64,000 nucleotides of DNA from Verrucomicrobiia bacterium (GTDB lineage Bacteria > Verrucomicrobiota > Verrucomicrobiia > Palsa-1439): contig JBEKLM010000001.1 of assembly GCA_050010195.1 (NCBI GenBank), positions 129,045 through 193,044 on the forward strand. The letters run 5' to 3'. The notes under the pieces are model-generated. The model worked only from the letters and a program-made list of their open reading frames with translations, did no database searches and was not told the DNA's origin. The position numbers were made by a program, and so were the translations under genes. This document shows positions 7,899 to 52,459 of this stretch, in pieces; the first letter of the stretch is position 1, and each line of letters starts with the position of its first letter.

Positions 7899-10800
7899 TT
7901 AGGGAACCAAGCGGACACGATAGTAACGGGATGGATTGTTCGTGGCTCCGCCCGAGTCAACATAATTGGTCGAGGTATCGCCACCAGTACCGGGCAGGAC
8001 CGTCTGCGAAGGCGGGAGGTCCGCAAAGTTGTTGGTGTTGTATCCGCCGTTGGCGTCCCCGCTGGTGACCTGCACCGCATTCGTATGTCCGCCCGCCGTC
8101 GTCCACGTAATCACGACATTGGTGCCCTGCGGCACGACCGAAACGATTCGGAACAGCGAGGCGCTATTGGTCGGATCCAGCCCCACTAGGAATTGGTTGG
8201 TGTTACTCATCCCCTTGCCGAGCGGATCAGCATTCGCTGCCGCTTGCGGACAGATCGCCAAGTTGGTGCAGGCAAAGTACTGCAATTGCCAGCACGTAAA
8301 CGGATCTCCCGGCGTCACACTCGCGCTGCCGTTCATCGTTGCCGTGCACCCGCTGGTCACGTTGGACGCGATCACCGTGTACGTGCCCACCGCCGTTTGG
8401 TCCGTAAACGAAATCGCGCTGCCCGTGCCGGCAACCAACGCACCGGTGGGACTACCGTTCAATTCCAATTGGTAATCCGCGGTCGATTCCGACCCATCCA
8501 AGCCGACTGTCACGCCGCCGCCAGCAGCGCAGTAGGAGCCGCCGCCGGTCACATTGAATGTCGCCGGACCAGCGCTGACCGTCAGTGTGGCCCCGCCGGA
8601 GGTCGCCGGCGGACTGCACGTGCCGCTGACCACACAATCGAAGCTCGCTCCCGAATCGCCAACCGCCGCATTCGAAATCGTCAAGCTCGCTGTGCCCGAG
8701 CCGCTGATGGTGCCGCCGTTGCCGATATTGGAGCCGTTCTTCTGCCATTGATAACTCAGACCCGCGCCGCTGGTTGAGACGGTGAAACTTGCCGACCCGC
8801 CAGCACAGACGGTCTGGGGCGAGGGACCTGAGAGGATGCCCGGGGCGGCATTGACCGCGACGGACAAACTGGAGCCGTTGCCGGTACACCCATTGGCATT
8901 GGCCGGCGTCACCGTCACGCTACCGGCGATCGAACCCCAATTGACCGTGATGGACGTGCTCCCCTGACCACTGATCGTCGCTCCCGACGGCACAGCCCAC
9001 GTGTACGTCGTCGCGCCGTTGACGCTGGAAATCGAATAGCCCACGCCGGTCTGTCCCGCGCAGACGGTGGTCGGGCCGCTGATCGAACCCGCCGCACCCA
9101 CGCCGGTGATGGTGACCGCCAAACTACTGGACGCACCGCTGCAACTGCCGTTGGTGGGGATGACCGTCACATTGCCGCTGGTAGCCGAGCAAGAGTAATT
9201 GACGGTGATCGAGGTCGTGCCCAGACCGCTGGCAACGGACGCTCCTGATGGCACGGTCCACGTGTAGCCGGTTGCGCCACTGACACTGGAGATTGAGTAC
9301 GCCACCCCGCTGCTCCCCGCGTTGACCGAGCTGGACCCGGTGATGGAGCCTGCCGAGCCGACGGAGCAGGGTGTCGCAACGATCAGGTTCACCTGACCGG
9401 ACGTGTTGGTGGAAACCGTGTAGGTGAAGCTCGGATTAGGCGTCGAGCCAACCGTCAGGCCGTTATACGTCAATGTTCCCCCGTAGGTGAACAGTGTGTA
9501 CGCCGTGTTGGTGAATCCGCCGGCATTGGCGACATTCAGCGTGCCGCTCAAGGTCAAATTGCCGGTCACCTCCGTTTTCGTGGCATTTGTCCCCAAGCCG
9601 TAATTCAGCGTGGATGATCCGCCGAGGCTCATGCTGTTGCTCACGGTGAGCGTGCTGCCGGCCAATGTAAGCAACGGATTCGCGCCGAAAGCACCGCTGT
9701 CAGCCGTCTCGGCCAGACCATTGAACAGGGACAGCACGGTGTTGGATGGCGCCCACAATCCGGTCATCGTCACGGTATTGGCGTTGGGGGCGCTATTGGT
9801 AACGGTGAATTGTGCATTATAGAGTGTCAATGTGTTCGTGCTTGTGTTGGGCGCAGTGAGGTTGGAATTAATGATCTGGACGCCGCGGACGTTATACATG
9901 CAGAAGGTTTTCGTCGGGGCGGAGATGTTCACCTTGCACAGCGTGAAGTTGCTGATGGGCGCCTGCGGCAACCCCCAGAACCACCCGGCAACGTTTCCGC
10001 CGATGGTGTACGCGGTCAAATTGCTGACAGTAATGTTTTCGAAGATCGGGGTGTGCGAGCCGCTATCGCTGAACGTGGCTGCGTCCCCCGGGGTATAGTC
10101 GAAGCTGCTTGTTGGGGCTCCGACGGTATTGTAAGTGCTGTAAAACGCGATGGCAAAATTCACGTTGCTCATGACGAGATCCTTATACACGCAGTTTTGG
10201 ATCACGCCCCCGCGGTCGGTGTCCGATTTGCCCTTGATGCCGTACTCCGTCCCGTTCCAGACGCAATTGCTCACGAGAAGATTGTTGACCCCGCCCTCGG
10301 TGTCGCTGCCGATCGACAGGCCGTGTCCGATGCCGAAAGTGCAATTGGACACGGTGATGTTGTTGGCCGGAGCGCCATTGCCTCCAATCTCAAGGTTGTC
10401 GTCTCCGTCGCTGATGTAACAGTTGCGGATCACCATGTTCGTCGAGGAGATGTCCATCCCGTCGGTGTTTGGTGAGGCCGGAGTATTGATGGTCATGTTC
10501 TGGATCGTGACATTGCCATCGCTGTTTTTCAGGTAGAGGGTGAACGTCGGTGGGTTTTGCAGTGTCACACCTTGGATCAGAATCCTCACCGTATGGTCGT
10601 ACTCTATAAAATTCGGTCGCGAACAGCCGCAGGTCCACCAGCCAGAGGACCCCTGGCCGTCGATCGTGCCGCCACCGCTAAGTTCGCAATCATGGAGCGT
10701 GTTTCCTTCCATGAAAGTGGTCGTGCCGGACCAACTGCTCATCGGCAACATCTGGAGCATCGCCCCGGCGTCGATCTGCAGATTGACACTGCTCTTCAGG

Positions 10801-11150
10801 GTGATAGGCCCGGCCAGATACGTGCTCAACGTGCCGTTGGCTGGGATCTCTACCGTGCCGCCGCCGGCCGCGTTGGCTGCAGTGATGGCGTTGTTGATCG
10901 CGGTCGCGTTGTTTGAGACGCCGTTGCCATACGCGCCGAAGCTCAATACATTGAAATTGGTGGTGGGAATGATCGGCAAATCCGGGTCGGCGTGCCCGGA
11001 CTTGGCGACTGCCAGCAACAACAAGACGGCCCAAGCGGTCGTCCTCCGCCAAGAAGCGGCAGGAAACCGCCTGTGCGACCGTTGATTGTTTTGCACTTGG
11101 AGCTTCACCGTGCGCCTCGCCGAACACCGCGTTCCCGTATGCTTTGTCAT
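7899..11150 (-). CDS. Giant secreted GH28-family beta-helix protein (1083 aa) with beta-strand repeats, tandem Ig-like/PKD-like domains and the conserved C-terminal domain ...NNPSRYYRVRLVP.
   Basis: Signal peptide TTAWAVLLLLAVAKSGHA. GH28 motifs NTDG, DGDD, GHG and KGK are present. Repeated about 88-aa Ig-like units carry GxGTTSITVNYSCSATSGNVTV. The C-terminal module is near-identical to that of the gene at 34330-39720. Confidence 0.8.
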   Translation of the reverse strand: MTKHTGTRCSARRTVKLQVQNNQRSHRRFPAASWRRTTAWAVLLLLAVAKSGHADPDLPIIPTTNFNVLSFGAYGNGVSNNATAINNAITAANAAGGGTVEIPANGTLSTYLAGPITLKSSVNLQIDAGAMLQMLPMSSWSGTTTFMEGNTLHDCELSGGGTIDGQGSSGWWTCGCSRPNFIEYDHTVRILIQGVTLQNPPTFTLYLKNSDGNVTIQNMTINTPASPNTDGMDISSTNMVIRNCYISDGDDNLEIGGNGAPANNITVSNCTFGIGHGLSIGSDTEGGVNNLLVSNCVWNGTEYGIKGKSDTDRGGVIQNCVYKDLVMSNVNFAIAFYSTYNTVGAPTSSFDYTPGDAATFSDSGSHTPIFENITVSNLTAYTIGGNVAGWFWGLPQAPISNFTLCKVNISAPTKTFCMYNVRGVQIINSNLTAPNTSTNTLTLYNAQFTVTNSAPNANTVTMTGLWAPSNTVLSLFNGLAETADSGAFGANPLLTLAGSTLTVSNSMSLGGSSTLNYGLGTNATKTEVTGNLTLSGTLNVANAGGFTNTAYTLFTYGGTLTYNGLTVGSTPNPSFTYTVSTNTSGQVNLIVATPCSVGSAGSITGSSSVNAGSSGVAYSISSVSGATGYTWTVPSGASVASGLGTTSITVNYSCSATSGNVTVIPTNGSCSGASSSLAVTITGVGAAGSISGPTTVCAGQTGVGYSISSVNGATTYTWAVPSGATISGQGSTSITVNWGSIAGSVTVTPANANGCTGNGSSLSVAVNAAPGILSGPSPQTVCAGGSASFTVSTSGAGLSYQWQKNGSNIGNGGTISGSGTASLTISNAAVGDSGASFDCVVSGTCSPPATSGGATLTVSAGPATFNVTGGGSYCAAGGGVTVGLDGSESTADYQLELNGSPTGALVAGTGSAISFTDQTAVGTYTVIASNVTSGCTATMNGSASVTPGDPFTCWQLQYFACTNLAICPQAAANADPLGKGMSNTNQFLVGLDPTNSASLFRIVSVVPQGTNVVITWTTAGGHTNAVQVTSGDANGGYNTNNFADLPPSQTVLPGTGGDTSTNYVDSGGATNNPSRYYRVRLVP
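8190..9300. repeat. Dispersed repeat copy A, about 1.1 kb. It matches 34640-35760 at roughly 90% nucleotide identity. Content is the C-terminal Ig-like/beta-sandwich module of a giant pectinase.
   Basis: Spurious plus-strand ORFs are nearly identical in both places: 8554-8751 versus 35003-35200, and 7966-8475 versus 34466-34924. The encoded minus-strand proteins align over more than 330 aa. Confidence 0.6.
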
Positions 11151-11594: not shown

Positions 11595-12320
11595 CTAGTC
11601 GCCCATAAACCAAGTGTTTTGACTCTGGGAAATACTCTTGCACTGGGTGATGACAGCCTGGATTTCGACATATTCCGCATGCCAGTCTGCACGGAGTGTG
11701 TTTATTCCCCCACCATGCCGGTTCATTATTTCTGAAGTCGAAAAGTCGTTCGGCAATTTCGTTTGGTCAAACTCATATTCTTTCCCATCGGTATCACACA
11801 GCACCAGAAATTCAGAGGGCTTGGGCACTGTATCGACACGGTAAAAATATGCAGAGCTATTCGCGGGATTGGGGTTCATGGGTGAGTATGCCCCATTCTG
11901 AAGCAAGTTGGGCTCGTTTTGGGCGAAGGTATATTGTGCCGCATTTGGAGGCATAACACCAGGCAACCCCCCAAGCTGGCTCTCGCGCATCGGACACGTT
12001 CTCATGTCATAAATCTTGCTGAGCGACCCCGAACTCCCCGCCATGTAACGCAGGTAGGCATTCGTGCACTCAGCGCCACTGTAATCTTGAAACGTAGTCG
12101 ATTGCCAATGCACAGGATCATAGAGATAACCGCCGTAATCGTCGGCATACATGGACATCGCGAGGCCCCATTGTTTCAGTCGGGCAAGGCAATTGGCCTG
12201 TTGCGCCTTCGACCGCGCCTTGTTCAGCGCCGGCAACAACATCGCCGCCAGGATGCCGATAATCGCAATGACCACCAGTAGCTCAATGAGGGTAAACGCT
12301 TTGTTCCTGCTCTGTTTCAT
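11595..12320 (-). CDS. Prepilin-type N-terminal cleavage/methylation domain protein of the H-X9-DG (DUF1559) family; T2SS pseudopilin-like.
   Basis: Class III signal [24 protein letters not shown] follows the Met at 12320. C-terminal motif [14 protein letters not shown] matches H-X9-DG. Upstream in-frame ATGs extend to 12416. Confidence 0.75.
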
Positions 12321-13336
12321 TTGCATCGGATCGGCTGCGCCTCCGGTTGTAAAACTATTTACAATAATCTTGCCCCGTCTTCGGTTCATACTCAGACCGC
12401 GCTTGTTCCTGGTCATTGTCGGTCCGCTCTATACTGCCGAAAGCTTACTTTCTTTCAGAGACTTTGCAAGAAATATGCTGTCGCCGGAGATCCGATTTCA
12501 AGAGCCTGTTCCCTCAGCGATTAGGTATGCTACCCCCGATGCGCCTTTGACAAACCGCTTCGGGAGACCAGTATCTTGGGAGAAGGCGTTACGGTTCACA
12601 GCACCCGGCGTCGCAGGCCACGTGTTAAAATGATGGTGCCGCCCGTGTCCTTGGCGACATGAGCCAACAGGGCGGTGTGGTGTGTCGCCGACAGGGATCG
12701 AACCGTAGCCCTGCTTCGTATTGCTAGTGACCGAAATGTGAAACACCACGACTTCGATCCCCCTCCGTGACTGATCGAACCTGCTTTCACTTTTGTATGT
12801 CATCCAATCAGAATGTTTCCGTTGGGAGTGTTAACGTGTCAAGGGCCAGACTCGTGAAAGGCGGACAAGCGACCGAAAACAACGCGGCGGCGGATTCAGT
12901 GAGGCAGGATTTTTCCGGCTGCAGCTTGCCATTGCACAACCCGCCCAATTGGCTTCGGCGCATCCAACCGCCTTAGACTCTGACTCCGGGGCTTTGAAGC
13001 AATGATTACGGCATCACGAACTGCTCTCCTTACTTGCAATCGGTTGCACGAACAGTTATGGAACCGACCCAACTCCCCCAATATACTTCTTGACAAATTA
13101 ATGCCAGCGTAAGGCCGCGTGACTTCCGAAAGTGTCTGTATTGCCGTCAGACCGTGGGATGTGCGTGCTGTCACCCGTGAAGATTGCCGCTAGTGTACTT
13201 GTCGGCAAATTCCGGTAAAATGGCATTCAACCGTTTGCAAAATGCGCCAGTCCGGCGAGGTTCAGGCCTGGTCTCAACTCTGAGAGCTTCCCCTGTCAGT
13301 GATTGCATATGCTAGGCAAGGAACGGTGAATAGGCA

Positions 13337-13475: not shown

Positions 13476-15404
13476 ATGAGATTCACGATGAATCAGACGG
13501 GAGCAGTCGTGCGCGCATTTCAAAACAATCCTACTAACTCAGTTTCAAAATTTTCTTTGAGGTCACGATCTGCGAAACATATCACCGCCGGAGCGATTGG
13601 CCTCGGCTTGTTGTTCATCGTCGTCGCCAATAGCCAGGCGCAGTCCACGAATTACTGGTGGACGGGTGCCGATAACAATGGCATTTGGGAGGATGCCAAT
13701 AATTGGGTGCTTACGAACGGCGTAGCGGCGACCACGTATCCGGCCAACCCAGTTACGCAACCGCCAGGATCGGAGACCGATGTTGCCATATTTACGAATT
13801 CCGGGACGTACGCGGTAACTGTCACCACTGTCGGCAACCTCAACATCCAAAGCAACTTTTTCAATAACGCGTCGAACAGCACGGCCACGGTCACGCTGAC
13901 CGTGAACAACAGCGGAACGTTCTACTTGCAGGGCGGTGGCACTGACTTTGAAATTGCCGATGGAGTTGACAGCACCTCGATCGTTTATCTGGCGTCTTCC
14001 CCTTCCCCGAACAACGGCCTGATAGTCAAGGGAACGGGCTTTATCGTCGGCCACGATGGCGTTGGCACATTGATCTTCACCAATGGATTTATTAACACCT
14101 CGGCCAGTGTTGTCGTGGACGTGGGATCTGGCGGGGGAAACGGAACGGTCATAATCAGCGGACCGAACACGTATTGGGAAGCCTACCAGTTTGCCATCGG
14201 CGACACGAACGCCAGTTATGGCAATTCCGTCATCATCTCGAATTCAGCGAGCCTTACGGCGGCCAGCACCTTTAGAATCGGCAGCAGCTCCACCACCGGC
14301 TCCAGCAACTGCCTGTTCGTCGTGACCGACGGCGGGTATTTCGCGGTCAACGGAGGCTCGCCGTTGACTGTCGGCAATCGAGGCGGCACGCTTTCTGCCG
14401 CTTCGGCATCGTACAACAATACCGTCATCGTTGGGAATGGCGGCGTTATCAATATTCCCGACCACAGCATTGTCGTGGGAAACTCCGCGACCATGGAATC
14501 GGGAATCAGTTGCAGCAGTTGCGCCGCCGGCGGCACCACCGCCACAGGCAACTTCTTTATAGTCGAGGCCGGCGGTGTGGTGAGTAACGCCACCCAGATC
14601 GCCATCACGACCAGCAACACCCTCGCATTGTACGGTGGGATTTTTGGCGGCGGAAGCCTGACCTACCTCGGAAGCATTACCAACTACGGTGTGTTTCAGG
14701 GCTGGGGCACCATTGTCGGCAGCCTGAATACCGGCAGCAACGTCTTCAACAACGCGCTCGGTTTCACGGCCGTAAGCAACCAGGTCGGAGCGTTGGTTCT
14801 GAGCAATGGCTTCACCACGGCCACGAACACGGTATTGCAAATCTCGTTGGGCACAAATTATTATCCCATTGCGGTCGGATTGGGCCAGGCGGATCCGCCT
14901 GCGAGCGCCTTGGTCTCCAACAACGACCTCGTCCTTAACGGGATCATCAACTTCGTCAACTCGGGCGGGTTCACCGACACCACCTACACGTTGTTTACGT
15001 ATCCAACGTCCCTCGTGGGTGTCAATAGCAACAAGTTCATTTGCGCTCCGGTGATCGGGACAGTTCCAAATCCCAGCCTCACCTACGCAATCAGCACCAG
15101 CACACCCGGTCAGATCAATCTGATCGTTGGCTGCACGAACTGTGCGCCGCCAGTGACGCCAGTGCCGTCGATCACGTCGATCACCCGTGTCAACAGCGGC
15201 CACGACATCTTGCTCCAGTGGAACACGAACGGTACGACGAACAACCACGTGCAGGTCACCACGGGCACGGCGAACGGCAGCTACTCGGCGAGCGGATTCG
15301 CAAACCTGGCCAATATTGTCGTCACCACCGCCACGACCAATTATGTGGATGTGGGTGGAGCAACGAACACCCCGTCCCGGTACTACCGCATCTCGTCACC
15401 GTAA
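13476..15404 (+). CDS. Secreted repeat protein (642 aa) with autotransporter-associated beta-strand repeats and the conserved C-terminal domain ...NTPSRYYRISSP. No catalytic domain was recognised.
   Basis: Signal-like segment HITAGAIGLGLLFIVVANSQAQS. Repeat GFTDTTYTLFTYPTSLVGVNS...LTYAISTSTPGQINLIV. The C-terminal about 90 aa resemble the C-termini of the four giant enzymes. Confidence 0.65.
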   Translation: MRFTMNQTGAVVRAFQNNPTNSVSKFSLRSRSAKHITAGAIGLGLLFIVVANSQAQSTNYWWTGADNNGIWEDANNWVLTNGVAATTYPANPVTQPPGSETDVAIFTNSGTYAVTVTTVGNLNIQSNFFNNASNSTATVTLTVNNSGTFYLQGGGTDFEIADGVDSTSIVYLASSPSPNNGLIVKGTGFIVGHDGVGTLIFTNGFINTSASVVVDVGSGGGNGTVIISGPNTYWEAYQFAIGDTNASYGNSVIISNSASLTAASTFRIGSSSTTGSSNCLFVVTDGGYFAVNGGSPLTVGNRGGTLSAASASYNNTVIVGNGGVINIPDHSIVVGNSATMESGISCSSCAAGGTTATGNFFIVEAGGVVSNATQIAITTSNTLALYGGIFGGGSLTYLGSITNYGVFQGWGTIVGSLNTGSNVFNNALGFTAVSNQVGALVLSNGFTTATNTVLQISLGTNYYPIAVGLGQADPPASALVSNNDLVLNGIINFVNSGGFTDTTYTLFTYPTSLVGVNSNKFICAPVIGTVPNPSLTYAISTSTPGQINLIVGCTNCAPPVTPVPSITSITRVNSGHDILLQWNTNGTTNNHVQVTTGTANGSYSASGFANLANIVVTTATTNYVDVGGATNTPSRYYRISSP

Positions 15405-17103: not shown

Positions 17104-19146
17104 TTATTGACTGTTTTGCAGTCGCGCCAGCGCGTTTCGAGCCGCAGTGAGGTCTGGCCGAAGCCTCAGCGCTTGCTCGTAGTGCTGTATTGCCTCCGGT
17201 GCTCGCCCCGCTTTCTCCAAGGCCACCCCCAGATTGTAGTGTGCCTTGTCGTAATCGGGCTTGATCCGCAACGCCTGTTCATAATGCCCGATGGCATCGC
17301 TGACCTTCCCCTCTTGCAATAAGAGATTTCCCAGATCGACGTGCGCTTGGGGATAATCGGGATTGATCCGCAGGGCCTGCCCGTATTGTGCGATGGCTTC
17401 CTTGATGTTACCCGTCTGCGCCAAAGCGATCCCGAGGTTGTTGTGCGCATCGGCGAGATCGGGCTGGATCCGTAGCGCTTGCTCATAATGCCCGATGGCA
17501 TCCTCGCACTTGCCTGCTTGCTCCAGGGCGACCCCCAGGTCGTTGTGTGCCCCGGCGAAATCGGGCTTGATCCGCAACGCTTGTTCATAATGCTCGATGG
17601 CGTCGCTGACCTTCCCCTGTTGCAAGAAGACAGTTCCCAGATTGAAGTGCGCATCCGCGTGATCGGGATCGATTCGCAGCGCCTGTTGGAACAGCTTTAT
17701 GGCCTCCCTCATCTTGCCCAGTTCCTGCATGGAAGCTCCGGCATAAACGTACACGTCGGCGCAACGCTCGACGCTCACTAACAGGTTGAACGCTACCGAG
17801 AAACCCAGCAGGAGGCCCCACCCCCAGCGTGCCGCACGGCGCCAGTCCGGCTGGTCAGCCAGTGCCCGCTCCAAGCCCAGTATCCCAATCACCGCCAGCA
17901 ACACCAGCGTGGGAAGGATTTCCGTCTCAAATCGATTGCCCGTGTAATAGTACAGGTCAACAATCAATGCGCAAACGCCCCAGAACAGTGTTGCCACCGC
18001 GATGAACCCCTGAAGCAGAGGAGAGCGCGACTCCCGTGTCCGTCCGCGCCACGCCAGGGGCAGAGCCAACGCCAGCCATACCACAGGAATGTCGCACAAG
18101 ATACCAAAGGGATAATCCATCGCCCCGTGCCCCGCAGGGAGGCGTGGCGCGGTGATGTCACGCACAAAGGGGAAATGACGGCCCCACCGGACCGGTTCGA
18201 GGAAATACACCCGGAAATTGAACCACAGGTATCGCAAGCTGAAAAACTGCTGTGTCGTCTGCCGGCCCGAGAGCAGCTGATAGTGAATGCCGAATTCGAA
18301 CGGGCTATCGAACCGCCGTGCGTTGTAGAGCATCAGCCCGAACCCGATCAGTGTGATGGGCACGACCGCCGCCATCAGGAGCGGCCAAACCGTGCGCCGT
18401 TCCCGCCACTCCTGCACCACTGGCGCCAGCAAGATCATCGCACCAAATACCAACGTGGGCCGTGCCCCCAATGCCAGCCCGTACACTACACTGGCCGCCG
18501 CCAGCCACAGCCATCTCCGATCCGGCTGGTGCAAGGCGCAATAGATTGCCCCGAGCGCCAGCATCGTCAGCATGTACGCGCAACTGATTGCCACCTCGTT
18601 ACCCGCGGACCGCGGCAACAGCATCGGCACACCCGTCGCCAGTCCCAGCGCCAGCGCGCCGGCTGCGACGACCCAGACGCTCACGTCGGAAAAATACCGC
18701 CGCCTCAGCGCGCAGAGCATAGCCACGCTGCCCAGAAAACCCAGGGCACAAAAGATCACCACGGCTTGTCCGTCATAAAGGTAATGGCCGGTCAGGGCGA
18801 CGAACGGCCAAAACAACAGCAAGGCGGGCGTAACCCCAAAGTACAAGTACACTTTGCCCTTGTAATAGCTCAGGTCGTACAGCCCATACTTCGCAGTCCG
18901 ATACGGAGCGTTGGCGGTTGGATCATAGGGGTCCGCAAGTTGCGTGAGTCCGGCCGGCACGTCCACCTTCAAGTTGAGCTGGCCGGCCTGAAAGCCCTCC
19001 ACCAATTGATTGTGGAAAGCGTCGGCAGCCTGTTGGCGCGGCCTTGCCATGAAGCCGGAGTAGGCCGCACACACATAGACCCCCACGACCAAGACACACA
19101 CTGCGGCCAATACTCTCCACTCATTCTTCATCGCGCTGGCGGCCAT
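17104..19146 (-). CDS. TMTC-like membrane protein: an N-terminal polytopic GT-C/PMT-like (DUF1736-type) domain fused to a C-terminal TPR array. Putative protein O-glycosyl (mannosyl) transferase.
   Basis: About 11 TM helices in the N-terminal half. At least 6 TPR units in the C-terminal half (AIEHYEQALRIKPDFAGAHNDLGVAL...). ATG at 19146; the track ORF extends to 19197. Confidence 0.7.
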   Translation of the reverse strand: MAASAMKNEWRVLAAVCVLVVGVYVCAAYSGFMARPRQQAADAFHNQLVEGFQAGQLNLKVDVPAGLTQLADPYDPTANAPYRTAKYGLYDLSYYKGKVYLYFGVTPALLLFWPFVALTGHYLYDGQAVVIFCALGFLGSVAMLCALRRRYFSDVSVWVVAAGALALGLATGVPMLLPRSAGNEVAISCAYMLTMLALGAIYCALHQPDRRWLWLAAASVVYGLALGARPTLVFGAMILLAPVVQEWRERRTVWPLLMAAVVPITLIGFGLMLYNARRFDSPFEFGIHYQLLSGRQTTQQFFSLRYLWFNFRVYFLEPVRWGRHFPFVRDITAPRLPAGHGAMDYPFGILCDIPVVWLALALPLAWRGRTRESRSPLLQGFIAVATLFWGVCALIVDLYYYTGNRFETEILPTLVLLAVIGILGLERALADQPDWRRAARWGWGLLLGFSVAFNLLVSVERCADVYVYAGASMQELGKMREAIKLFQQALRIDPDHADAHFNLGTVFLQQGKVSDAIEHYEQALRIKPDFAGAHNDLGVALEQAGKCEDAIGHYEQALRIQPDLADAHNNLGIALAQTGNIKEAIAQYGQALRINPDYPQAHVDLGNLLLQEGKVSDAIGHYEQALRIKPDYDKAHYNLGVALEKAGRAPEAIQHYEQALRLRPDLTAARNALARLQNSQ

Positions 19147-19197
19147 TTCCACACAACCTCGTATTTGTTGAACGAATAACTCCCGCCTGCCTGCCAA

Positions 19198-19495
19198 AGG
19201 TCAAGTCAAAATGGGGCACTGGCACGTTTCTTCGCAGGGCAGCGATGGTGCGCGGCCTCGGACATGCTGTAGCTTCGTCCCATCTGCGGGAGTTCGCCGC
19301 TCCGGAGGCTTGTAATCCGATATTTCCCATAAGATTTACACCCCGCGACTGTCGCGTGGACCATAAACTCTGACCATCGCTCTCAGCATCACTTTTGACA
19401 ATGCTGACAAGCCGATTCTGAGCATTGGTCCTCGCACCGAGTTCGGATTCAGCGTTGCCGTCGTCGTCCGTCCGCTCCGGAACCAATTTCACCCT
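19198..19495. promoter_or_regulatory. Divergent intergenic region between two TMTC-like genes; presumed bidirectional promoters.
   Basis: 298 bp sit between the minus-strand start at 19146/19197 and the plus-strand start at 19496. No ORF was seen. Confidence 0.25.
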
Positions 19496-21436
19496 ATGTC
19501 CTCCGCCGGACGGATACCTTTCAATACCCTGCTAGACTTGACGGGGCGCGACTGTTACCATCCGGCCATGTCGCGGGGTACTACGGCACTCGGGTTTTCC
19601 AAGGTTGTGAAACCCGCTGCCTCACCGCACCGATGGAAGACCATCCTTGGCGGCGGAATGATTGTCCTCGCCGCCCTGGCGGCGTACCACAACAGCTTCG
19701 CGGTGCCACTTCTCCTGGATGATCTTCCCTCAGTTGAGGATAATCCGACCATTCACCATCTGTGGCCGATCTGGAAGGCGCTATCGCCACCCCCCGCCTC
19801 GTTCGTGGGAGGTCGCCCGATCGTAAACCTCTCCCTGGCCGTCAACCATGTGCTGGGGGGGGCGGCCGTTTGGGGGTATCACGCATTTAATCTGGCCGTG
19901 CATGTTCTGGCGGGCTTGACGCTGTATGGCATCGTGCGCCGGACGTTGGTGCGGCCAGGGTTGCGGGAACGATTCGGCGCGGCGGCGGAGTGGGCAGCCC
20001 TGGCGGTGGCGGTCATCTGGACGGTTCATCCGTTGCAGACCGAGGCCGTGACGTACATCTCCCAGCGGTGCGAGTCGTTGATGGGACTGTTCTACCTGCT
20101 GACCCTGTATGGCTTCATCCGGGGTGCGGAATCACGGAGATCGATCGGGTGGTTCACCTTGTCCGTGGCTACGTGTTTCCTGGGCGTGGCGAGCAAGGAA
20201 GTGATGGTGACGGCTCCCGTGATGGTGCTGCTGTACGATAGGACCTTCGTCAGCGGGAGCTTTCGGGAAGCATGGGCGCGACACCGTCGCCTGTATCTGG
20301 GATTGGCCAGCAGTTGGCTGTTGCTGGGCTGTTTGATGGCTGGTTTGCACGACCGCGGCGTCGGCTATGGCCTCGGGATGCTCTGGTGGGCTTATGCGCT
20401 GGCGGAATGTCGAGCGGTCGTGCAGTACCTCGGGCTGGCCCTGTGGCCGCATCCGCTGGTTTTCGACTACGGATTTTATGTGCCGACAGGGCATCTGGCG
20501 GCGGTGGTGCCATACGCACTGATTCTGGCGGTCCTGGCAACCGTCGTTTTGTTCGAGGTGAAGCGGCACCCGGCCATTGGGTACGTTGGGGCCTGGTTCT
20601 TCGTGATTCTGGCCCCGACCTCCAGCGTGGTGCCGATTGTGGGGTCACCGATGGCCGAGCACCGGATGTATCTGCCGTTGGCATCCGTGGTTACGATGAT
20701 CGTGATCGGCGCGGTTGCGCTCGGAAAACGGCTGTTTCACGAGCAGCAGGTCGTTGTGCTTGGATGGGTGGTGGGTGGTTCCGTCGTGGCACTGCTCACA
20801 TCTCTGACAATCCAACGCAATCAGGATTACCACTCGGCGTTGACCCTTTGGCTGGACACCGTGGAGAATGATCCCAACAACTCTCGGGCGCATTCCACCT
20901 TGGGGAGTGTTTTGTTCCAGGCAGGCAAGGTGCAGGAGGCGATCGGGCATTACGAACAGGCGCTGCGGATCCAACCCGATTACGTCACGGCACACAACAA
21001 CTTCGGGGTCGCCTTGGTTCAACAGGGCAGGCTGCCGGAGGCCATTGGCCACTACGAGCAGGCGCTACAGCTCAGGCCCGATTACGCCGAAGCGCACAAT
21101 AATCTGGGGATCGTCTTGATGCGACAGGGCAGGCTGCCGGAGGCCATTGGCCACTACGAGCAGGCGCTACGGCTCAGGCCCGATTACGCCGAGGCGCACA
21201 ATAATCTGGGGATCGCCTTATTTCGGCTGGGCAAGGTGCAGGAGGCCATTGGACATTGGGAGCAGGCTCTGGGCATCAATCCCGATTATGCCGAGGCGCA
21301 CAACAACCTGGGGAATGGCTTGTTTCGGCTGGGCAAAGTGCCAGAGGCCATTGGCCACTATGAGCAAGCGCTGCGGATCAAGCCCGATTATATCCAGGCC
21401 CAAAGTAACTTGGCGCGAGCGCGGGCTGTTCCGTGA
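19496..21436 (+). CDS. TMTC-like GT-C/TPR membrane protein, paralog 2.
   Basis: The DD motif near the first luminal loop, LLLDDLPSVEDNPTI, is typical of PMT/ArnT-type GT-C enzymes. About 10 TM helices are followed by at least 5 TPR units (AIGHYEQALRLRPDYAEAHNNLGI...). Confidence 0.75.
   Translation: MSSAGRIPFNTLLDLTGRDCYHPAMSRGTTALGFSKVVKPAASPHRWKTILGGGMIVLAALAAYHNSFAVPLLLDDLPSVEDNPTIHHLWPIWKALSPPPASFVGGRPIVNLSLAVNHVLGGAAVWGYHAFNLAVHVLAGLTLYGIVRRTLVRPGLRERFGAAAEWAALAVAVIWTVHPLQTEAVTYISQRCESLMGLFYLLTLYGFIRGAESRRSIGWFTLSVATCFLGVASKEVMVTAPVMVLLYDRTFVSGSFREAWARHRRLYLGLASSWLLLGCLMAGLHDRGVGYGLGMLWWAYALAECRAVVQYLGLALWPHPLVFDYGFYVPTGHLAAVVPYALILAVLATVVLFEVKRHPAIGYVGAWFFVILAPTSSVVPIVGSPMAEHRMYLPLASVVTMIVIGAVALGKRLFHEQQVVVLGWVVGGSVVALLTSLTIQRNQDYHSALTLWLDTVENDPNNSRAHSTLGSVLFQAGKVQEAIGHYEQALRIQPDYVTAHNNFGVALVQQGRLPEAIGHYEQALQLRPDYAEAHNNLGIVLMRQGRLPEAIGHYEQALRLRPDYAEAHNNLGIALFRLGKVQEAIGHWEQALGINPDYAEAHNNLGNGLFRLGKVPEAIGHYEQALRIKPDYIQAQSNLARARAVP
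21032..21235 (+). repeat. Near-perfect tandem duplication of a 102-nt (34-aa) TPR unit inside the TMTC-like gene.
   Basis: ccggaggccattggccactacgagcaggcgctac(a/g)gctcaggcccgattacgccga(a/g)gcgcacaataatctggggatcg occurs twice back to back with 2-3 mismatches. Confidence 0.6.
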
Positions 21437-21462
21437 GAGCAGGCTTGGGAAGTGGCACATGA

Positions 21463-23529
21463 ATGGGGCATGCTCCGTCAGCCGCCGACGGCCTACTGAC
21501 AGTGTGGTGGAAACTCAATAATGTGACGAACAGACTGCCATCGCCAATAGAAAAGACCTGGGAATCGGCAGTGTTGCCCGCCGCTCTCATTGTCTTGTTG
21601 ACGATCGTGGCCTACCTGCCCGCGTTCCGAGCCGGGTTTATCATGGATGATGACACCCTCATTGTTAACAATCATCTGATAAAAATGCACGATGGTTTAT
21701 ACCGTTTCTGGTGCACAACGGAACCACCTGATTACTGGCCATTGACCTCGACGACGTGGTGGATGGAATGGCGGTTGTGGGGCAAGAATCCCCTGGGTTA
21801 CCATGTCGTCAACATCATCCTCCACGCGCTGAGCGCCACACTGTGGTGGCGTATCCTGACGAGGCTGAAGGTCCCGGCACCGTGGCTGGCGGCTGCGGTA
21901 TTTGCCGTGCATCCGGTTAATGTCCAGTCTGTGGTCTGGATTGCCGAGCGCAAGAACACGCTCGCGATGCTCTTCCTTGCGTCGACACTGCTCGGGTGGT
22001 TGAAATTTGAAGACACAGGCCATCGGCGCTGGTACTGGCTTGCCCTGGGAACGTTCGCATTGGCGCTCTTGAGCAAGGCGGCGGTCGTCACGCTGCCCCT
22101 GGTGTTGCTGGGAATTGCGTGGTGGCGACGGGGGAAAGTGGACTTGACTGATGCATTGCGCAGCCTCCCGTGTTTCGCGCTTGCAGGCTTGTTGGGTTGC
22201 GTGACGGTCTGGTTCCAAAATCACCGGGCCATCGCCGCCGATATCGTGCGGCAGGACAGCTTCTGGTCACGGCTGGCGGGAGCGGGATGGGCGCTGTGGT
22301 TTTATCTGTACAAGGCACTACTGCCGCTGAACCTGTGCTTCGCTTATCCACGATGGCAGATCGACCCGAACACCCTCCTCTCCTATCTCCCGGGACTGCT
22401 CTGGGCGGCGGGTTTGCTGGTGTGCTGGCATTATCGTCAACGGTGGGGGAGGCCGTGGCTGTTTGGCCTGGGCTATTTCACGATGATGCTCTTGCCGGCC
22501 CTGGGATTCTTCAACGTCTACTTCATGCGATACTCACTGGTCGCTGATCGCTGGCAATACTATTCGATTATCGGCCTGATTGCCCCCGTTGTCGGCGTGG
22601 CCACCATGATTGCCCAGCGGGCCGGCCCGCAAACCCGCGATCTTGGAAAGTTCGCCGCAGCCGTCCTTCTGTTCACGCTGGGAGTCTCGACGTGGAAACA
22701 GGCCCATGTCTATCGGGACCCGGAAACGCTCTGGCGCGATACTTTGGCAAAGAATCCTGATTCCTGGTTGGCGCAGAACAACCTGGGAGTCATATTAAAG
22801 AACAAGGGGATGCTGTCGGAGGCGCGGGAACACTATGAGCAGGCTGTCCGTATCGCGCCCGACAATCTTGAGACACACAACAATCTGGGAAATGTCTTGC
22901 TCCAATTGGGCGAGGTGCCGGCAGCCATCGACGAGTATGAACGCGCGCTGCGAATCAAGTCCAATCAGGCCGAAACCCGCTTCAATCTCGGCAATGCCCT
23001 GCTCCAAATTGGAAACGTGACGAATGCGATCGCCGAGTATGAAGGCGCGTTGCAGATCAAACCCGATTATGCCGTTGCCCACAATAACCTCGGTAACGCC
23101 CTGCTCCAATCCGGCAAGGCAATGGAGGCAATGGCACAGTTCGAGCAAGCGATACGCCTCGATCCCGATCTGGTCGAGGCCCACTACAATCTGGGAGTTG
23201 TCTTTGCGTCCCAAGGACGGCTGGATGAAGCCGTCGAGCAGTACCGGAAAGCCATCCAGATCAAACCGGATTATGCGGACGCGTATGGCAACCTCGCCAA
23301 CGCACTGGCCGCGCAAGATCGTCTCGATGAGGCCATCGAGAATTACCAGCGGATGCTGGTGCTTGTGCCGAATTCCGCCGATGCGCACTACAATCTCGGC
23401 CTCGCGCTGCAGAGTCAGAAAAAGGCTGCGGCGGCGATTACACAATTCCGTGAAGCTTTGCGGATCGACCCAAACCACGAGGATGTCAGGCGGCAGTTGC
23501 GCGCGCTGGGGGCCTTGCCACTGCCGTGA
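21463..23529 (+). CDS. TMTC-like GT-C/TPR membrane protein, paralog 3.
   Basis: [16 protein letters not shown] motif. About 11 TM helices, then 7 TPR units to the C-terminus. It starts 27 nt after paralog 2. Confidence 0.75.
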
Positions 23530-23656
23530 GCCCGCACGATTCACAACCATCGATTTCATCACGTCAACGACCTCCGGTGCAGAATCCCTCAGCTTCGGTT
23601 CGGCACTGATATTCGTGTTGACGGCGGTTTTGCCGGCCAGACATTATGGTCAAATC

Positions 23657-23959
23657 ATGAGACGGATTCTTCTGACCACGCCCTCTTTTCAGGACATCCC
23701 CCGCGAACATCACAAACTGATGGCGGACGCTGGTTTCGAGTTCGTTCGCGGCCGCGGTCCCCTGCCCGAGCCGCGCATGCTGGAACTCGTCAGCAAGGGC
23801 GACTTCGACGGCTGGCTCATCGGCGATGCTGCGATCACCCGCGCCGCCATCGAGAAGTCGCTTCCGCGGCTGAAAGTCATCAGCAAATATAGCGTCGGCC
23901 TCGATAAAGTGGACGTCAAGGCCGCACCGGAACTGAATGGAGACAAGAAATGCCATTGA
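23657..23959 (+). pseudogene. Truncated remnant of a D-isomer-specific 2-hydroxyacid dehydrogenase (substrate-binding N-domain only, 100 aa).
   Basis: MRRILLTTPSF...AITRAAIEKSLPRLKVISKYSVGLDKVDVKAAPELN matches the N-terminal catalytic-domain signature of SerA/2-HADH enzymes. It stops before any NAD-binding GxGxxG. Its 3' end overlaps the kdgK start at 23950. Confidence 0.4.
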
Positions 23960-28052: not shown

Positions 28053-28199
28053 TTCGCGGCGGAGTGAAGCGCCGAAGGGAACACGGTGGTGTGGTGTGCC
28101 TTTGGGCCAACCCGGCGCACAACCGACATTCCCCCATCCGGCGTGAACTTTTCGGGTTCGGCTTGCAACTACTCAGAGAGAGGAGACAATCTCAGAGAG

Positions 28200-28688
28200 G
28201 TGCAATCCGACACGGATACCATTGGCCGGTTGTATGGGCAGCACGCGGGCGAACTGTACCACTACCTCGCGCGGCGATGTCCCGATGCCGCGACCGCGGG
28301 CGATCTCTTGCAGGAAACCTTCCTGCAGGTCGTCCGCCAGTCCGATCAACTGGCCAAGGTGGCCATCCCCCGCGCCTGGCTGTTCGCCATCGCCCGCAAT
28401 ATGTTGGCCCGCCACTACCGCCGCCAACGCGATCCTGAGCCCGTCGCGCAGCTCTGGTACGAACCTGCCGAGAAGAAGGACGACCGCCTCGCCGTCATGC
28501 GGGAGGCCATCGGCAGTTTGTCCACCGAATTGCGCGATACCCTCGAGTTGCGGCTGGAACAGGAATTGTCCTACGAAGAAATCGCCCATGTGCTGGATGT
28601 CCCGGTCGGGACGGTCCGTTCGCGCTTGCACAACGCCGTGCGCCAGTTGCGCGACCTCATGAACCAGCAGGAGGAAACCAACCCATGA
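28200..28688 (+). CDS. ECF (sigma-70 family, group IV) RNA polymerase sigma factor.
   Basis: Region 2 (GDLLQETFLQVVRQ) and region 4 (LSYEEIAHVLDVPVGTVRSRLHNAVRQL) are present. Probable GTG start at 28200 after AGGAGA; the track ORF extends to 28086. Confidence 0.75.
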   Translation: MQSDTDTIGRLYGQHAGELYHYLARRCPDAATAGDLLQETFLQVVRQSDQLAKVAIPRAWLFAIARNMLARHYRRQRDPEPVAQLWYEPAEKKDDRLAVMREAIGSLSTELRDTLELRLEQELSYEEIAHVLDVPVGTVRSRLHNAVRQLRDLMNQQEETNP

Positions 28689-29170
28689 AACCGGATGTCA
28701 TCGAACGTTTGCTACTGGACCGTGCGCTGGGACGCCTCGATCCCGACGTCGACGCGCTGCTGGCGGATTACCTGGCCGACGACGCACCCGCGGCGACCCG
28801 GGCCCGGGAATTTCAGGGCGTGGTGCATCTGGCCAGCGAGGCCGTTCGTCAACCCGTGCTCGCCATCGAGCCGCCCAATCAAATCCATCGGCTCGTCTGG
28901 CGTCATCGCGCCGAACGAGCGCTGGCCCTCGCCGCCTCGTTTGTGATCGGCGCAGGCATCACCGCGCTGGCACTCCGCGCCAGCCTCCGGCACGAGGACA
29001 ACACAGTCTCACTCGCGCCATCGGTCCAAAGCGTATCGATGCCGTCGTCACGCCGCGCCGCCCTCGTAAAAAGCAAGATCGAGTCTCTTCCCTTCTGGTC
29101 AAACCAACGGCTGTACCTGCTCGCATCGGCGGCAGCCGCCGACGCGAACGCAAAGGAGATAGTGAAATGA
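28685..29170 (+). CDS. Putative anti-sigma factor (single-pass membrane protein).
   Basis: Its start overlaps the sigma-factor stop (ATGA). One TM helix ALALAASFVIGAGITALAL. This matches the size and position of ECF anti-sigma partners. Confidence 0.5.
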   Translation: MKPDVIERLLLDRALGRLDPDVDALLADYLADDAPAATRAREFQGVVHLASEAVRQPVLAIEPPNQIHRLVWRHRAERALALAASFVIGAGITALALRASLRHEDNTVSLAPSVQSVSMPSSRRAALVKSKIESLPFWSNQRLYLLASAAAADANAKEIVK

Positions 29171-30600
29171 ATTCTGGCAAATTACTCTCACAATGGTTTC
29201 TTCTGGCAGTCTCCGGCCTTCTCGTGCTTTGCGCCGGCTGCGACCCGACGGACTGGGTTTGTTGGGCGCCGGATGGTGAGCACGCGTTCGTGCAGGGGGC
29301 GGACAATACCACCTTCCTGATTGACCGTACCGGCAAGGTCCTGGGCAACGCGACCGACGCGAAAGCCTGGCTTCCGGATTCGCGGCGGGTCGTTGCCGTT
29401 CACACGGTGAAACCCACCAGTTGGGATGAATACGCCAAATTGCTCGGCCCCGACCGCGCCGGGAAGACAACCAATGCCGCCGCGAGCATGGTGGAGGTGA
29501 TCCAGGCGTACCATGGTGATTGGGCCAAGTTCGGCGATTCGCCCGAGTACAAGAAATGGGAGAACGACGTCGTCGGGCAGACGTACAACGCCGAATGGCT
29601 CACACGATCGGTCGCGCTGTATCTCCAACAAACAAACCCCAAAATTCTTGCCCCCATTCTCACCGCAAGCTCCATCTCCATAACGAATCTTATCCCCGAC
29701 ATCTACGAACTTGGCACCCGCAATGCCCTGCCGTCTGACCCGCCAGCCGAGCAGTTGCTGGCCCGTGTCCCGGACGAGATCATCGCGGTGTTTCCCTCGC
29801 CGAGCAGGCAGGCCATCGCCTTTGCCGTCGGACAACCCGACCGCCCGGCCCTCTACGTCATCCCGCAATCCACAAACAGTTCTCCCATGAGGGTGGACGA
29901 AGATGTAACCGAAGCCGCTTGGTCGACGGACGGCCAGGACCTCGTCTACCCCAAGACCACGGTTCCCTACGACTTGCTTCAGAAAAGTACTCAACTTGGG
30001 ACCATCACGAGCCGCCGCGTTTGCGGGACCAATGGACTCCTGCTGGCCAAGTTCGAGGATCCCAAGGACGTCGCCGGAATAATCCTAGGACAGACCTTCA
30101 CTCGCGTGGCGTGTCTCCCCGACGGTCGGATTCTCTTCGCCGCAGCCCCGATTCGTTTGCCGGCGCTAACTTCCGATGAGCCGAGCCACCTGACGCTGTT
30201 TGCCATTCGACCTGGCGCGACACCAACCCTGGAGTCGATCGTGCATCCCGCCGACATCTCACGGCTTCCAGACCGGGTGGACCGCTTTGCGCTGAGCCCT
30301 GACAAGAAGCGGGCGTCCATCGTCGACGAACAGGGACACGTGAGTATCGTGTCCCTGGATACCGGGGAATTACTGGCGATCCAGGCAGCAACCGTCTATT
30401 CCAACACCGACAAATACACGCAACTCATCCCGGCCTGGCGAACCACCAACGAAGTCACGTGCCTTGTCCCGATCGGCGATCCTTCTGGGAGCACGGCGCG
30501 CGTGGAGGTTGTCCTGGCGAACTTGAACGGTCAGAAGACCGCCATCAGCCGGTCCTGGTCAAACGCGACGATGAAGGGACTGCTGTTGCCCAGCGAATGA
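29167..30600 (+). CDS. Lipoprotein, probably a beta-propeller (TolB/WD40-like), co-transcribed with the ECF sigma/anti-sigma pair.
   Basis: The start overlaps the anti-sigma stop. Signal plus lipobox-like LVLCAGC. Repeated ...SPDG/STDG... strands. Confidence 0.5.
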   Translation: MNSGKLLSQWFLLAVSGLLVLCAGCDPTDWVCWAPDGEHAFVQGADNTTFLIDRTGKVLGNATDAKAWLPDSRRVVAVHTVKPTSWDEYAKLLGPDRAGKTTNAAASMVEVIQAYHGDWAKFGDSPEYKKWENDVVGQTYNAEWLTRSVALYLQQTNPKILAPILTASSISITNLIPDIYELGTRNALPSDPPAEQLLARVPDEIIAVFPSPSRQAIAFAVGQPDRPALYVIPQSTNSSPMRVDEDVTEAAWSTDGQDLVYPKTTVPYDLLQKSTQLGTITSRRVCGTNGLLLAKFEDPKDVAGIILGQTFTRVACLPDGRILFAAAPIRLPALTSDEPSHLTLFAIRPGATPTLESIVHPADISRLPDRVDRFALSPDKKRASIVDEQGHVSIVSLDTGELLAIQAATVYSNTDKYTQLIPAWRTTNEVTCLVPIGDPSGSTARVEVVLANLNGQKTAISRSWSNATMKGLLLPSE

Positions 30601-40072: not shown

Positions 40073-40966
40073 TCAGCGACAGCGGCGACGAACCAGTCCG
40101 ATCATCAGGGCGAGGCCCGTTGCGAGCAGCGCCAACGCCGACGGTTCGGGGATACTCGTGGTGATTGTGACGGAATCGACGTCCATGGCCGACGGAACGT
40201 CGGCCCCGTTCGAATACCAACCGAACGCCAGACCATCGAAGGTGCTGGTCAGATTAGTGGCACCCCCGGCGGTGCCGAACGTCTGCGAGAGAACACTCCC
40301 GCCGCTGGACAGGGTATTGGTGATGGAGAGCACACCGGCGGCACTGATCCATATTCTGAGGTCGTTCGTGTACGTGCTGCCCTTGGTCAACGCCGCTGAG
40401 GATGTTGCAGTGGCACCGTTTACTATTACTCCCTGGGGATTCTTGTATGCGAAACTGGAACTGTTCCCATTGCCGAGTAGATCCTGCTCATTTCCAGATG
40501 TCTGTGCCGGGCGGGTGAAGATCTGCGAAGCCCCGTTGTTCGTGGCCGTCATCCCTACGTACCCCAGCCAGTTCTGAACGCCGCCCGTATTGGTCACGGT
40601 GTCTGAATTGTCTGTGAGGGGCGCAACGCCACCGGAATTGTACAGTCCCATGTAGAGTTGCGCGCTTGTGCCGGCCAAAAGGTTCGAGGTGTCGTTGAAC
40701 ACCAATTGAAAATCAATAAAACCACCGACGTTCTGCAGCGCGACCGGCGAGGTGGTAAACAACGCCTGCGCTTCGACGCCGACGCCCGCCCTTTCTTCGC
40801 ACCGAGGGACCGCGCTACGGTCCGAGACGAATGCGGTAGTAGCGGGACGGGTTGTTGGTCGCGCCGCCCACATCACGATAACTGTTCGTCGCGTTTCCGC
40901 TTCCCGGAACGGCCAGCGGCCCACTGATGTCCAAGAAGTTGGTGGCGTAATTGCCACTGACATCAC
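40073..40966 (-). CDS. PEP-CTERM protein, paralog of 15712-16731. It appears N-terminally truncated (no signal peptide) and may be a pseudogene.
   Basis: C-terminus SIPEPSALALLATGLALMIGLVRRRCR. The body aligns with the 15712-16731 protein (FTSTPVVLQNTGDYIDF versus FTTSPVALQNVGGFIDF). Its 5' end is overlapped by 150 nt of the 3' end of the 40815-44483 gene. Confidence 0.45.
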   Translation of the reverse strand: MMSVAITPPTSWTSVGRWPFREAETRRTVIVMWAARPTTRPATTAFVSDRSAVPRCEERAGVGVEAQALFTTSPVALQNVGGFIDFQLVFNDTSNLLAGTSAQLYMGLYNSGGVAPLTDNSDTVTNTGGVQNWLGYVGMTATNNGASQIFTRPAQTSGNEQDLLGNGNSSSFAYKNPQGVIVNGATATSSAALTKGSTYTNDLRIWISAAGVLSITNTLSSGGSVLSQTFGTAGGATNLTSTFDGLAFGWYSNGADVPSAMDVDSVTITTSIPEPSALALLATGLALMIGLVRRRCR

Positions 40967-48984: not shown

Positions 48985-49641
48985 GCGGTAGCGTTTTTCT
49001 ACATTCGCGCAGTGGGCCTAACCGACGATGCTGACTGCAAGAAACGAAGACGAATCTGTCGTAGATGAAGCGCAGTTGGCCCGGTCCGATACCCACGTAA
49101 TTCCCCAACAGGCTCCGCAACGAAGCCCGAGCAGCCATAAACCGCCTAGCATCCACACTGTTCAGGAATCGACTGGCGCGTTCTTGCTCGTCAGGCGACA
49201 GAATCGACCGAAAGCCTGGCAATCGCTCCGGCACGAGGTCGAGAGCAACGACCCACAGCTGCGCCTCGGCATCGCCCAGGTCGCCCGGTCGGTTGCGGAA
49301 CGGCCACGGACTCGTCATGGTTTGGATGCTTTCGATACCATTGACCTGGCCATGAGAGAAAGGTTAGAAGTCGTCCGGGTGTAACGGATGAAGGGGCAAA
49401 GGCCATCAGCGATACCAGACTCATGACGATGCGCGGCGTGGCATTGCCGACGCGCAGCGAGTTCCGCGGGTGGGCCAGATCCTCCATGCTGGTCTGGATC
49501 TACTCGCGGCGCCACTTTCGAAGTTTCATTATCTCCTTGTGTTACTGCTGCCAATGATGGCAAAGGTGTTCCGTACCCGGCTCCTGCCGAACAAATGGAA
49601 ATGGCTCGCGTTAATTGCCGGAGTTGTTAGTTTCGGCAACG

Positions 49642-52458: not shown

Positions 52459-52459
52459 A

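Follow-up and report, generated by a model that had tools for sequence, protein, structure and literature searches.

Glycosyltransferases that join a membrane-embedded GT-C domain to a tetratricopeptide repeat (TPR) arm have been described in eukaryotes and in bacteria. TMTC1-4 (CAZy family GT105) are eukaryotic protein O-mannosyltransferases whose TPR arm is on the non-cytoplasmic side of the membrane; seven TMTC motifs were defined by Eisenhaber et al., and prokaryotic TMTC homologs were noted earlier (PMC7801869). TMEM260, an O-mannosyltransferase with the DUF2723 domain and 11 transmembrane (TM) helices, is an independent GT-C and TPR fusion that also has distant bacterial homologs (PMC10214176). 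In Pseudomonas aeruginosa the 646 aa protein TfpW, likewise of GT-C plus TPR architecture, is a pilin O-arabinofuranosyltransferase (bioRxiv 10.1101/2020.04.19.049825). Other near known kin are PMT/POMT (GT39), ArnT (GT83) and further members of the Pfam PMT_2 clan.

Here four genes of similar architecture, termed A to D, are described from a 64,000 nt stretch of DNA (the window) of a Verrucomicrobiia bacterium (GenBank assembly GCA_050010195.1, contig JBEKLM010000001.1, positions 129,045 to 193,044). The window is also part of a 282.8-kb contig of JGI metagenome 3300038619, and NCBI lists its proteins from a Verrucomicrobiia MAG (metagenome-assembled genome). Each of the four genes encodes a polytopic membrane domain followed by a TPR array, and they are referred to as TM-TPR genes. 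The reading favored here, to which we assign a probability of roughly 0.55, is that A-D reside in the inner membrane, each having a polytopic N-terminal domain and, at the C-terminus, a TPR arm that faces the periplasm; that the GT-C enzymes comprise B, C and D and probably A as a very divergent one; that Ser/Thr residues of exported proteins are the likeliest acceptor; and that the position of the genes within a pectin locus is lineage-specific synteny. The GT-C plus TPR kind of protein is already known. What appears to be new are its expansions in bacteria of the Planctomycetota-Verrucomicrobiota-Chlamydiota (PVC) group and an under-described sister family, the A type; a literature search found no paper on PVC TM-TPR expansions or on the A-type family.

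Gene models and the GT-C identity of B, C and D

Gene B (19496-21436, plus strand; JGI start at 19658) encodes 646 aa, gene C (21463-23529, plus strand) 688 aa, and gene D (55014-56531, minus strand) 505 aa; D is paralogous to C, and its TPR arm is short, with two to three repeats. Gene A (17104-19146, minus strand) encodes 680 aa as called by NCBI and JGI, or 697 aa if read from an upstream TTG at 19197. All four begin with a polytopic half and end in TPRs that Pfam matches strongly (E 1e-16 to 1e-64). The GT-C domain and the TPR array occupy nt 19496-20791 and 20792-21433 in B, nt 21463-22719 and 22720-23526 in C, and nt 55317-56531 and 55017-55316 in D; in A the membrane domain is at nt 17773-19146 and the TPR array at nt 17107-17772. 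An initial annotation had described A, B and C as three consecutive genes, with D as a fourth, that each fuse a GT-C domain to TPRs. The open reading frames (ORFs) and TPR arrays are as described, but A is on the minus strand and divergent from B, thus A, B and C are not three co-directional genes, and the membrane domain of A is unrelated to the others by BLAST. A possible gene remnant is found at 23483-23959 (plus strand), where JGI calls a 158 aa gene with a 2-Hacid_dh N-terminal match; it shares 47 bp with the 3′ end of C and borders directly on the PfkB kinase gene.

B, C and D belong to the GT-C glycosyltransferases and, among these, to the PMT_2/TMTC type. The membrane domains of C and D are 49% identical (BLASTP, E 1e-116), and that of B is 25-27% identical to both (27% and E 1e-14 with C, E 1e-9 to 1e-11 with D). 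C and D match Pfam PMT_2 (PF13231) at 23.8 and 24.1 bits, respectively (E ~5e-5), just under the gathering threshold of 26.1. A and B have no PMT_2 match at E <= 10, and the membrane half of B has no Pfam match of any kind. Many close homologs of C among those listed carry a precomputed PF13231 match; thus the C-type family sits at the edge of the PMT_2 model. No PDB match was obtained for the membrane domains of A, B, C or D by sequence or profile search, and NCBIfam has no model for any of them. The predicted structure of the C membrane domain superposes on solved GT-C enzymes, which confirms the fold for C.

Acidic residues are present in the first extracytoplasmic loop of all three proteins as a DD pair: LLLDDLP in B (19709-19729, residues 72-78), FIMDDD in C (21637-21654, residues 59-64, with a DDD) and FVFDDYP in D (56385-56405, residues 43-49). 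A DD or DE motif had been ascribed to each of the GT-C domains, and this holds for B, C and D; A has no DD, but D91 of HDxSYY in its loop 1 shows a conservation of at least 90%. For the C family, an alignment of 33 sequences has D63 without exception and D62 conserved to at least 90%, and DD, K205, D362 and Y366 are conserved in the family. When aligned with the C family, B retains DD, HP, SK and (D/E)-(R/H)-x-x-Y. The HP motif is found in WTVHPLQT of B (20018-20041), FAVHPVNV of C (21901-21924) and FAIHPVNV of D (56118-56141); SK is found in SKEVMVT (20192-20212), SKAAVVT (22072-22092) and SKTAVVM (55950-55970); and the last motif in AEHRMY (20654-20671), ADRWQY (22543-22560) and ADHWQY (55482-55499), respectively.

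These motifs were compared with the published TMTC motif table (PMC7801869, Table 4). M1 (DD) is carried by B, C and D. M2 (SHKSYRP) is partial, reduced to YWPL in C, YYPL in D and GRP in B; M3 (RxD) appears as RCE in B and RKN in C; M4 (KE(T/Q)xxT) as KEVMVT in B, KAAVVT in C and KTAVVM in D; and M7 (ERxxY) as EHRMY in B, DRWQY in C and DHWQY in D. The likeness to TMTC1-4 comprises an N-terminal GT-C domain of about 11 TM helices with a C-terminal TPR arm predicted on the non-cytoplasmic side, the DD of the first extracytoplasmic loop, a conserved Lys in loop 3 (with the Glu and Thr of KExxxT also present in B), (E/D)(R/H)xxY in loop 5, and several paralogs per genome. In addition, FAVHPVNV of C resembles LFAVHPIHT of TMTC3, of the helix-3 FAVHP(I/V) type (PMC7801869). 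The differences, besides the reduced M2 and those of DUF1736 and M4 taken up below, are that the carrier would be polyprenyl phosphate and not dolichyl phosphate, that the bacterial copy number is far higher, with tandem arrays, and that A is not detectably a member. In our reading the mode of action of B, C and D is that of TMTC or TfpW, yet they are not TMTC orthologs.

The model of C has 11 TM helices if helix 267-286 is counted as juxtamembrane, as in TMTC, and its cytoplasmic loops are positively charged, which fits an N-in, C-out orientation. The helix count and loop charges together would place the TPR arm of C outside the cytoplasm, in the periplasm.

By its published architecture, TfpW, which is bacterial and of similar size, shares a cytoplasmic N-terminus, 11 predicted TM helices, a DDx motif in the first periplasmic loop and a TPR region at the C-terminus, likewise in the periplasm. 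TfpW uses a polyprenyl-phosphate-linked sugar and modifies Ser/Thr of an exported protein. The statement that bacterial counterparts of TMTC are essentially uncharacterised was thus too strong, since TfpW has been studied and several of the present homologs are already labelled protein O-mannosyl-transferase by IMG/JGI. The cyanobacterial Ogt pilin enzyme was set aside as a comparison because it is a cytoplasmic GT41 protein.

Gene A and the A-type family

The membrane domain of A has no BLAST similarity to those of B, C or D (E > 0.4), no match in Pfam, NCBIfam or the PDB, and no DD motif. A-type proteins are a second, larger TM-TPR family for which there is no Pfam model. At 90% identity the family forms at least 1839 clusters; at 50% identity there are 4415 representatives, of which 751 have E < 1e-30. 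The matches that bear a name are Verrucomicrobiia. A is comparable to TMEM260 in that a distinct membrane family is joined to an arm of this kind, but DUF2723 is unmatched by A and by the A relatives tested.

Conservation in the A family is found in the periplasmic loops, at DPYDP, HDxSYY, E184, G(A/S)RP, YNxxRFxxPxEFGxxYQ and RY405-406, with D91, E184, R229, N275, R278 and R405 among the conserved residues. In A itself DPYDP is at 18919-18933, YDLSYY at 18862-18879 and LGARP at 18457-18471. A comparison of deep profiles of the A and C families with hhalign gave an alignment collinear across both membrane domains (score 38.4, E 4.8e-4, probability 32%); reversed and block-shuffled control profiles scored 17-22 (E 0.08-0.28). 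With shallow alignments no A-C similarity was seen by hhalign (probability 0.7% and 5.6%). Individual A-family members showed sub-threshold matches to PMT_2 (0.011), DUF6541 (4e-5 to 0.02) and DUF2142 (0.04). In the structure comparison of A, TPR matches filled both result lists, and the model is weak over residues 305-410. On the strength of the profile comparisons, A is probably a very divergent GT-C and a remote relative of the C family.

Family size, distribution and gene arrays

In Verrucomicrobiota and Planctomycetota, the multigene family of these genes has undergone strong expansion and forms tandem arrays. The C type comprises at least 2820 clusters at 90% identity and matches at least 583 stretches in species-representative genomes, from Verrucomicrobiota, Planctomycetota, several deltaproteobacterial lineages, Sumerlaeota and others. 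Gene neighborhoods were counted within ±10 kb in the best 79 homolog loci of these 583 or more stretches. Two or more TM-TPR paralogs are present in 41 of the 79 loci, some of which have up to nine, and A-type genes adjoin B/C/D-type genes in seven. Single metagenome-assembled genomes (MAGs) carry at least 10-15 TM-TPR copies.

Arrays of six to nine TM-TPR match clusters within about 20 kb are found in L063 and L070 (Pirellulales) and in L005, L015, L031 and L048 (Verrucomicrobiia), and those of L005, L031 and L070 are mostly co-directional. It should be noted that some of the nine match clusters of one Pirellulales locus are perhaps pieces of one gene, as is possible for the nearly contiguous clusters of L060 and L063. 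YfhO-like GT-C genes accompany TM-TPR genes in L004, L030 and L071. Small Dpm1/GtrB-like GT2 genes are found beside TM-TPR genes in five loci on four contigs (L005, L012, L019, L043 and L071, with L012 and L019 on one contig).

When the ORFs of the 79 loci were clustered, the TM-TPR family alone was widely recurrent (195 ORFs in 76 loci). It is followed by a PEP-CTERM protein family in seven loci and GH28 in six, all Verrucomicrobiae; no other gene family is found in more than seven, and there is thus no conserved neighbor family. This differs from the setting of tfpW, a single-copy gene that is not arrayed and lies immediately downstream of its client gene pilA. The sole prepilin-like gene of the window (11595-12416, minus strand, Pfam N_methyl) is about 4.7 kb from A with two genes between, and N_methyl homologs are near only six of the 79 loci, so that a pilin adjacency of the TfpW type is not observed.

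Proposed function and alternative readings

By analogy with the enzymes described above, A-D are most likely periplasm-facing, polyprenyl-phosphate-sugar-dependent glycosyltransferases that recruit their acceptors through the TPR arm. On the cytoplasmic side, a GT2 protein of the GtrB/ArnC type would charge polyprenyl phosphate with a monosaccharide, and the lipid-linked sugar would be flipped to the periplasmic face. There the GT-C domain would transfer the sugar with the acidic DD pair of the first loop, while the conserved Lys of loop 3 and Arg/His of loop 5 would hold the phosphate. The TPR arm would recruit or present the acceptor, most likely Ser/Thr of exported proteins as for TMTC1-4, TMEM260 and TfpW. 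A protein acceptor is proposed because the characterised GT-C plus TPR fusions found all act on proteins.

Several observations weigh against this reading. DUF1736 (PF08409), which covers the TM7-TM8 loop of TMTC, matches none of the four membrane domains at E <= 10, and C and D do not have the metal-binding Glu of motif M4. There are also GT-C enzymes whose acceptors are lipid A, arabinan, teichoic acids or other glycans, and in polysaccharide export TPR arms are used as scaffolds. As to the locus, TM-TPR genes are beside GH28 or pectate lyase genes in the Verrucomicrobiae MAGs L005, L006, L017, L023, L026 and L035 and are retained by the orthologous pectinase block of the metagenome contigs L081 and L085, and since adjacency is kept in these, a local functional link in this lineage is conceivable.

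The main rival holds that the acceptor is a glycan or lipid: the GT-C enzymes would decorate an envelope or capsular polysaccharide, lipopolysaccharide/lipid A or a peptidoglycan-linked glycan, and the TPR arm would dock as a scaffold on periplasmic or outer-membrane assembly machinery. This is possible but doubtful. Many bacterial GT-C enzymes, such as ArnT, Emb/Aft, PimE and the three-component side-chain glycosylation systems, do have glycan or lipid acceptors, loci that diversify glycans typically have paralogs in tandem, and other GT-C genes cluster with TM-TPR genes (GT87 and ArnT-like in the window, YfhO-like in three loci). BcsC, PgaA and VexE of polysaccharide export are among the weak NCBIfam matches of the TPRs, but these matches are generic and far under the cut-offs. 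Genes of polysaccharide synthesis or export (Wzx/Wzy/Wza, ABC transporters) are not recurrent next to the arrays in the 79 loci, and every characterised GT-C plus TPR fusion found glycosylates proteins. Alternatively, the proteins, A above all, may have lost glycosyltransferase activity and be membrane-anchored TPR scaffolds or chaperones. The missing DD and fold match of A, as well as the missing M4 Glu of C and D, would agree with such a loss, but the loop residues are strongly conserved over hundreds of clusters in both the C and A families, which fits an active site better than a passive anchor; a non-catalytic role is very improbable.

The initial annotation had proposed a glycosylation system dedicated to the giant secreted pectinases, in which each of the four paralogs could have its own substrate specificity through the TPR arm. 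In this reading A-D would O-glycosylate the GH28 and pectate-lyase giants of the window, and perhaps PEP-CTERM proteins too. The genes are indeed interleaved with those of pectinases, and B and C are co-directional with kdgK, kduI, kduD and an MFS transporter gene. GH28 ranks third among the neighbor families, and GH28 or pectate lyase adjoins TM-TPR arrays in L047 as well as in the six MAGs listed above. The proposed clients are rich in Ig-like and PKD domains, and Ig-like folds are acted on by TMTC and TMEM260 (cadherin EC domains, PMC13123603, and IPT domains). Against this, 73 of the 79 homolog loci have no GH28, and kduI, kdgK, uxaC, uxaE and eda are found in none of the 79. In a reciprocal test, loci were fetched from a metagenome scan with the GH28 giant 7899-11150 as query. 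Six were true orthologous GH28-giant loci, and 74 others matched the Ig/PKD part alone and form a loose comparison set. TM-TPR genes are at the syntenic position in two of the six (L081 and L085), where the arrangement of the window is kept, and absent from L083 and L084, which have full flanks; the remaining two are too short to judge. None of the 74 Ig/PKD-only loci has a TM-TPR neighbor. The positive loci are close relatives and hence not independent, and where a GH28-rich genome carries at least 10-15 tandemly arrayed paralogs, as single MAGs do, some are likely to adjoin GH28 by chance. D is grouped with signalling genes and not with pectinases. Thus the ortholog, Ig/PKD-set and neighbor counts indicate inherited synteny in one lineage whose genomes are rich in both gene types. 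The position in the pectin locus looks like lineage-specific synteny rather than functional coupling, and a system dedicated to the pectinases is quite unlikely. The families are very large and tandemly arrayed, which comes close to genes that are ubiquitous with no association to secreted-protein loci. Of the initial interpretation, TMTC-like GT-C/TPR proteins remain for B, C and D, and the dedicated system is not supported.

The giants are rich in S, T and N, as had been reported (S+T 23-25%, N 8-10%), but their N-x-S/T sequons are as frequent as composition predicts: 34 observed against 28.5±4.5 expected, 25 against 22.6, 33 against 37.8, and 26 against 21.4. One string quoted as an example, NATNFS, is in none of the six reading frames. 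N-glycosylation was rejected, since the sequons equal composition and GT-C proteins of this kind are O-transferases, for which the N-sequon is not the acceptor motif. Essentially no S/T/P-rich mucin-like linkers, the targets of PMT-type enzymes, were found in the giants. PEP-CTERM proteins, considered because one such family is the most frequent neighbor other than TM-TPR, were also rejected as true clients for lack of support, with 1.39 per 100 kb near TM-TPR genes and 1.02 in comparison loci, a density near background.

A broader possibility should also be mentioned, namely a large periplasmic protein O-glycosylation network in Verrucomicrobiota and Planctomycetota. It would consist of two GT-C-type families, the A type being undescribed and remote, with at least 10 paralogs per genome. 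Each TPR arm would select exported folded domains, as TMTC1-4 and TMEM260 choose cadherin and IPT domains in animals, and in this lineage A, B and C would serve the Ig/PKD-rich pectinases and their conserved neighbors. In this full form the network is unlikely.

The pectin locus and other features of the window

The window is a pectin and galacturonate utilization locus. It encodes three giant GH28 proteins and one pectate-lyase protein, all with Ig/PKD domains, which agrees with the secreted pectinase giants first described, as well as a small GH28 protein and an esterase. The catabolic genes encode a KdgK-like PfkB kinase, KduI, a KduD-like short-chain dehydrogenase/reductase, a major facilitator superfamily (MFS) transporter, UxaE, UxaC and KDPG aldolase; the regulatory genes are those of an AraC protein and of an extracytoplasmic function (ECF) sigma factor. 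The latter is at 28086-30600 (plus strand), in the interval that separates the kdu genes from the AraC regulator, together with two genes that follow it; these encode 161 aa and 477 aa proteins that have no significant family match and are possibly an anti-sigma factor and its partner.

At the C-termini of five secreted proteins there is a common module of about 110 aa that reads NADPxGKG(M/I)SNTNQFLxGLNPTNxxSxFRI ... and ends RYYR(I/V)R..P. The module is present in the three GH28 giants, the pectate-lyase protein and an unannotated 642 aa protein (13476-15404), at 3577-3906, 7902-8231, 34333-34662 and 40818-41147 on the minus strand and 15072-15401 on the plus strand. Pfam reported no family over it, and an NCBIfam scan of this part in one of the proteins gave none either; a role in sorting or anchoring is possible. 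The 642 aa secreted protein (plus strand, no family match) and the prepilin-type protein stay beside GH28 giants in L081 and L085 (50-63% identity). This conserved block of 642 aa protein, prepilin and GH28 is separate from the TM-TPR genes.

A GT87 protein (1278-2687, Pfam E 2e-25) and PEP-CTERM proteins at 15643 and 44835 are present as first noted, and a third PEP-CTERM ORF is at 40073-41017 (minus strand; ...IPEPSALALLATGLALMIGLVRRRCR). The last is directly downstream of the pectate-lyase gene, and its longest frame overlaps the 3′ end of that gene. Just upstream of D, at 56673-62758 on the minus strand, are genes for a TonB-dependent receptor, a YfiR/HmsC-like DUF4154 protein, a histidine kinase and a hybrid kinase/response regulator. 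D closes this co-directional run and could be the last gene of a signalling operon.

A lipid-linked sugar cassette had been placed at 49642-53320 and was recovered at 49615-53320 (plus strand). It encodes a GT-C protein with a weak PMT_2 match (49615-51192), a GT2 of the GtrB/ArnC type (51421-52458) and a YdjC-family deacetylase. The GT2 matches Pfam Glycos_transf_2, GtrB (PDB 5ekp, E 1e-54) and ArnC (9bhc, E 7e-35). By this similarity it is a putative polyprenyl-phosphate monosaccharide synthase and a candidate donor-maker for the GT-C enzymes. Its most probable direct client is the adjoining GT-C protein, and it may also supply A-D. We take the cassette to resemble the lipid A aminosugar modification systems LgmABC of Bordetella and FlmF2/NaxD/FlmK of Francisella, and because of this presumed resemblance it is more likely an envelope-lipid than a protein glycosylation system.

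Implications

For this locus, the pectin-utilization genes require no special glycosylation story. For annotation, the label tetratricopeptide repeat protein hides thousands of probable membrane glycosyltransferases, and the A-type family, which at 50% identity has 4415 clusters and is covered by neither Pfam nor NCBIfam, merits a family definition of its own. If the TM-TPR proteins are protein O-glycosyltransferases, the PVC bacteria would have by far the largest TMTC-like expansions known. They would then also offer a tractable bacterial system for how a TPR arm picks the clients of a GT-C enzyme, a question that is still open for human TMTC1-4 and TMEM260.

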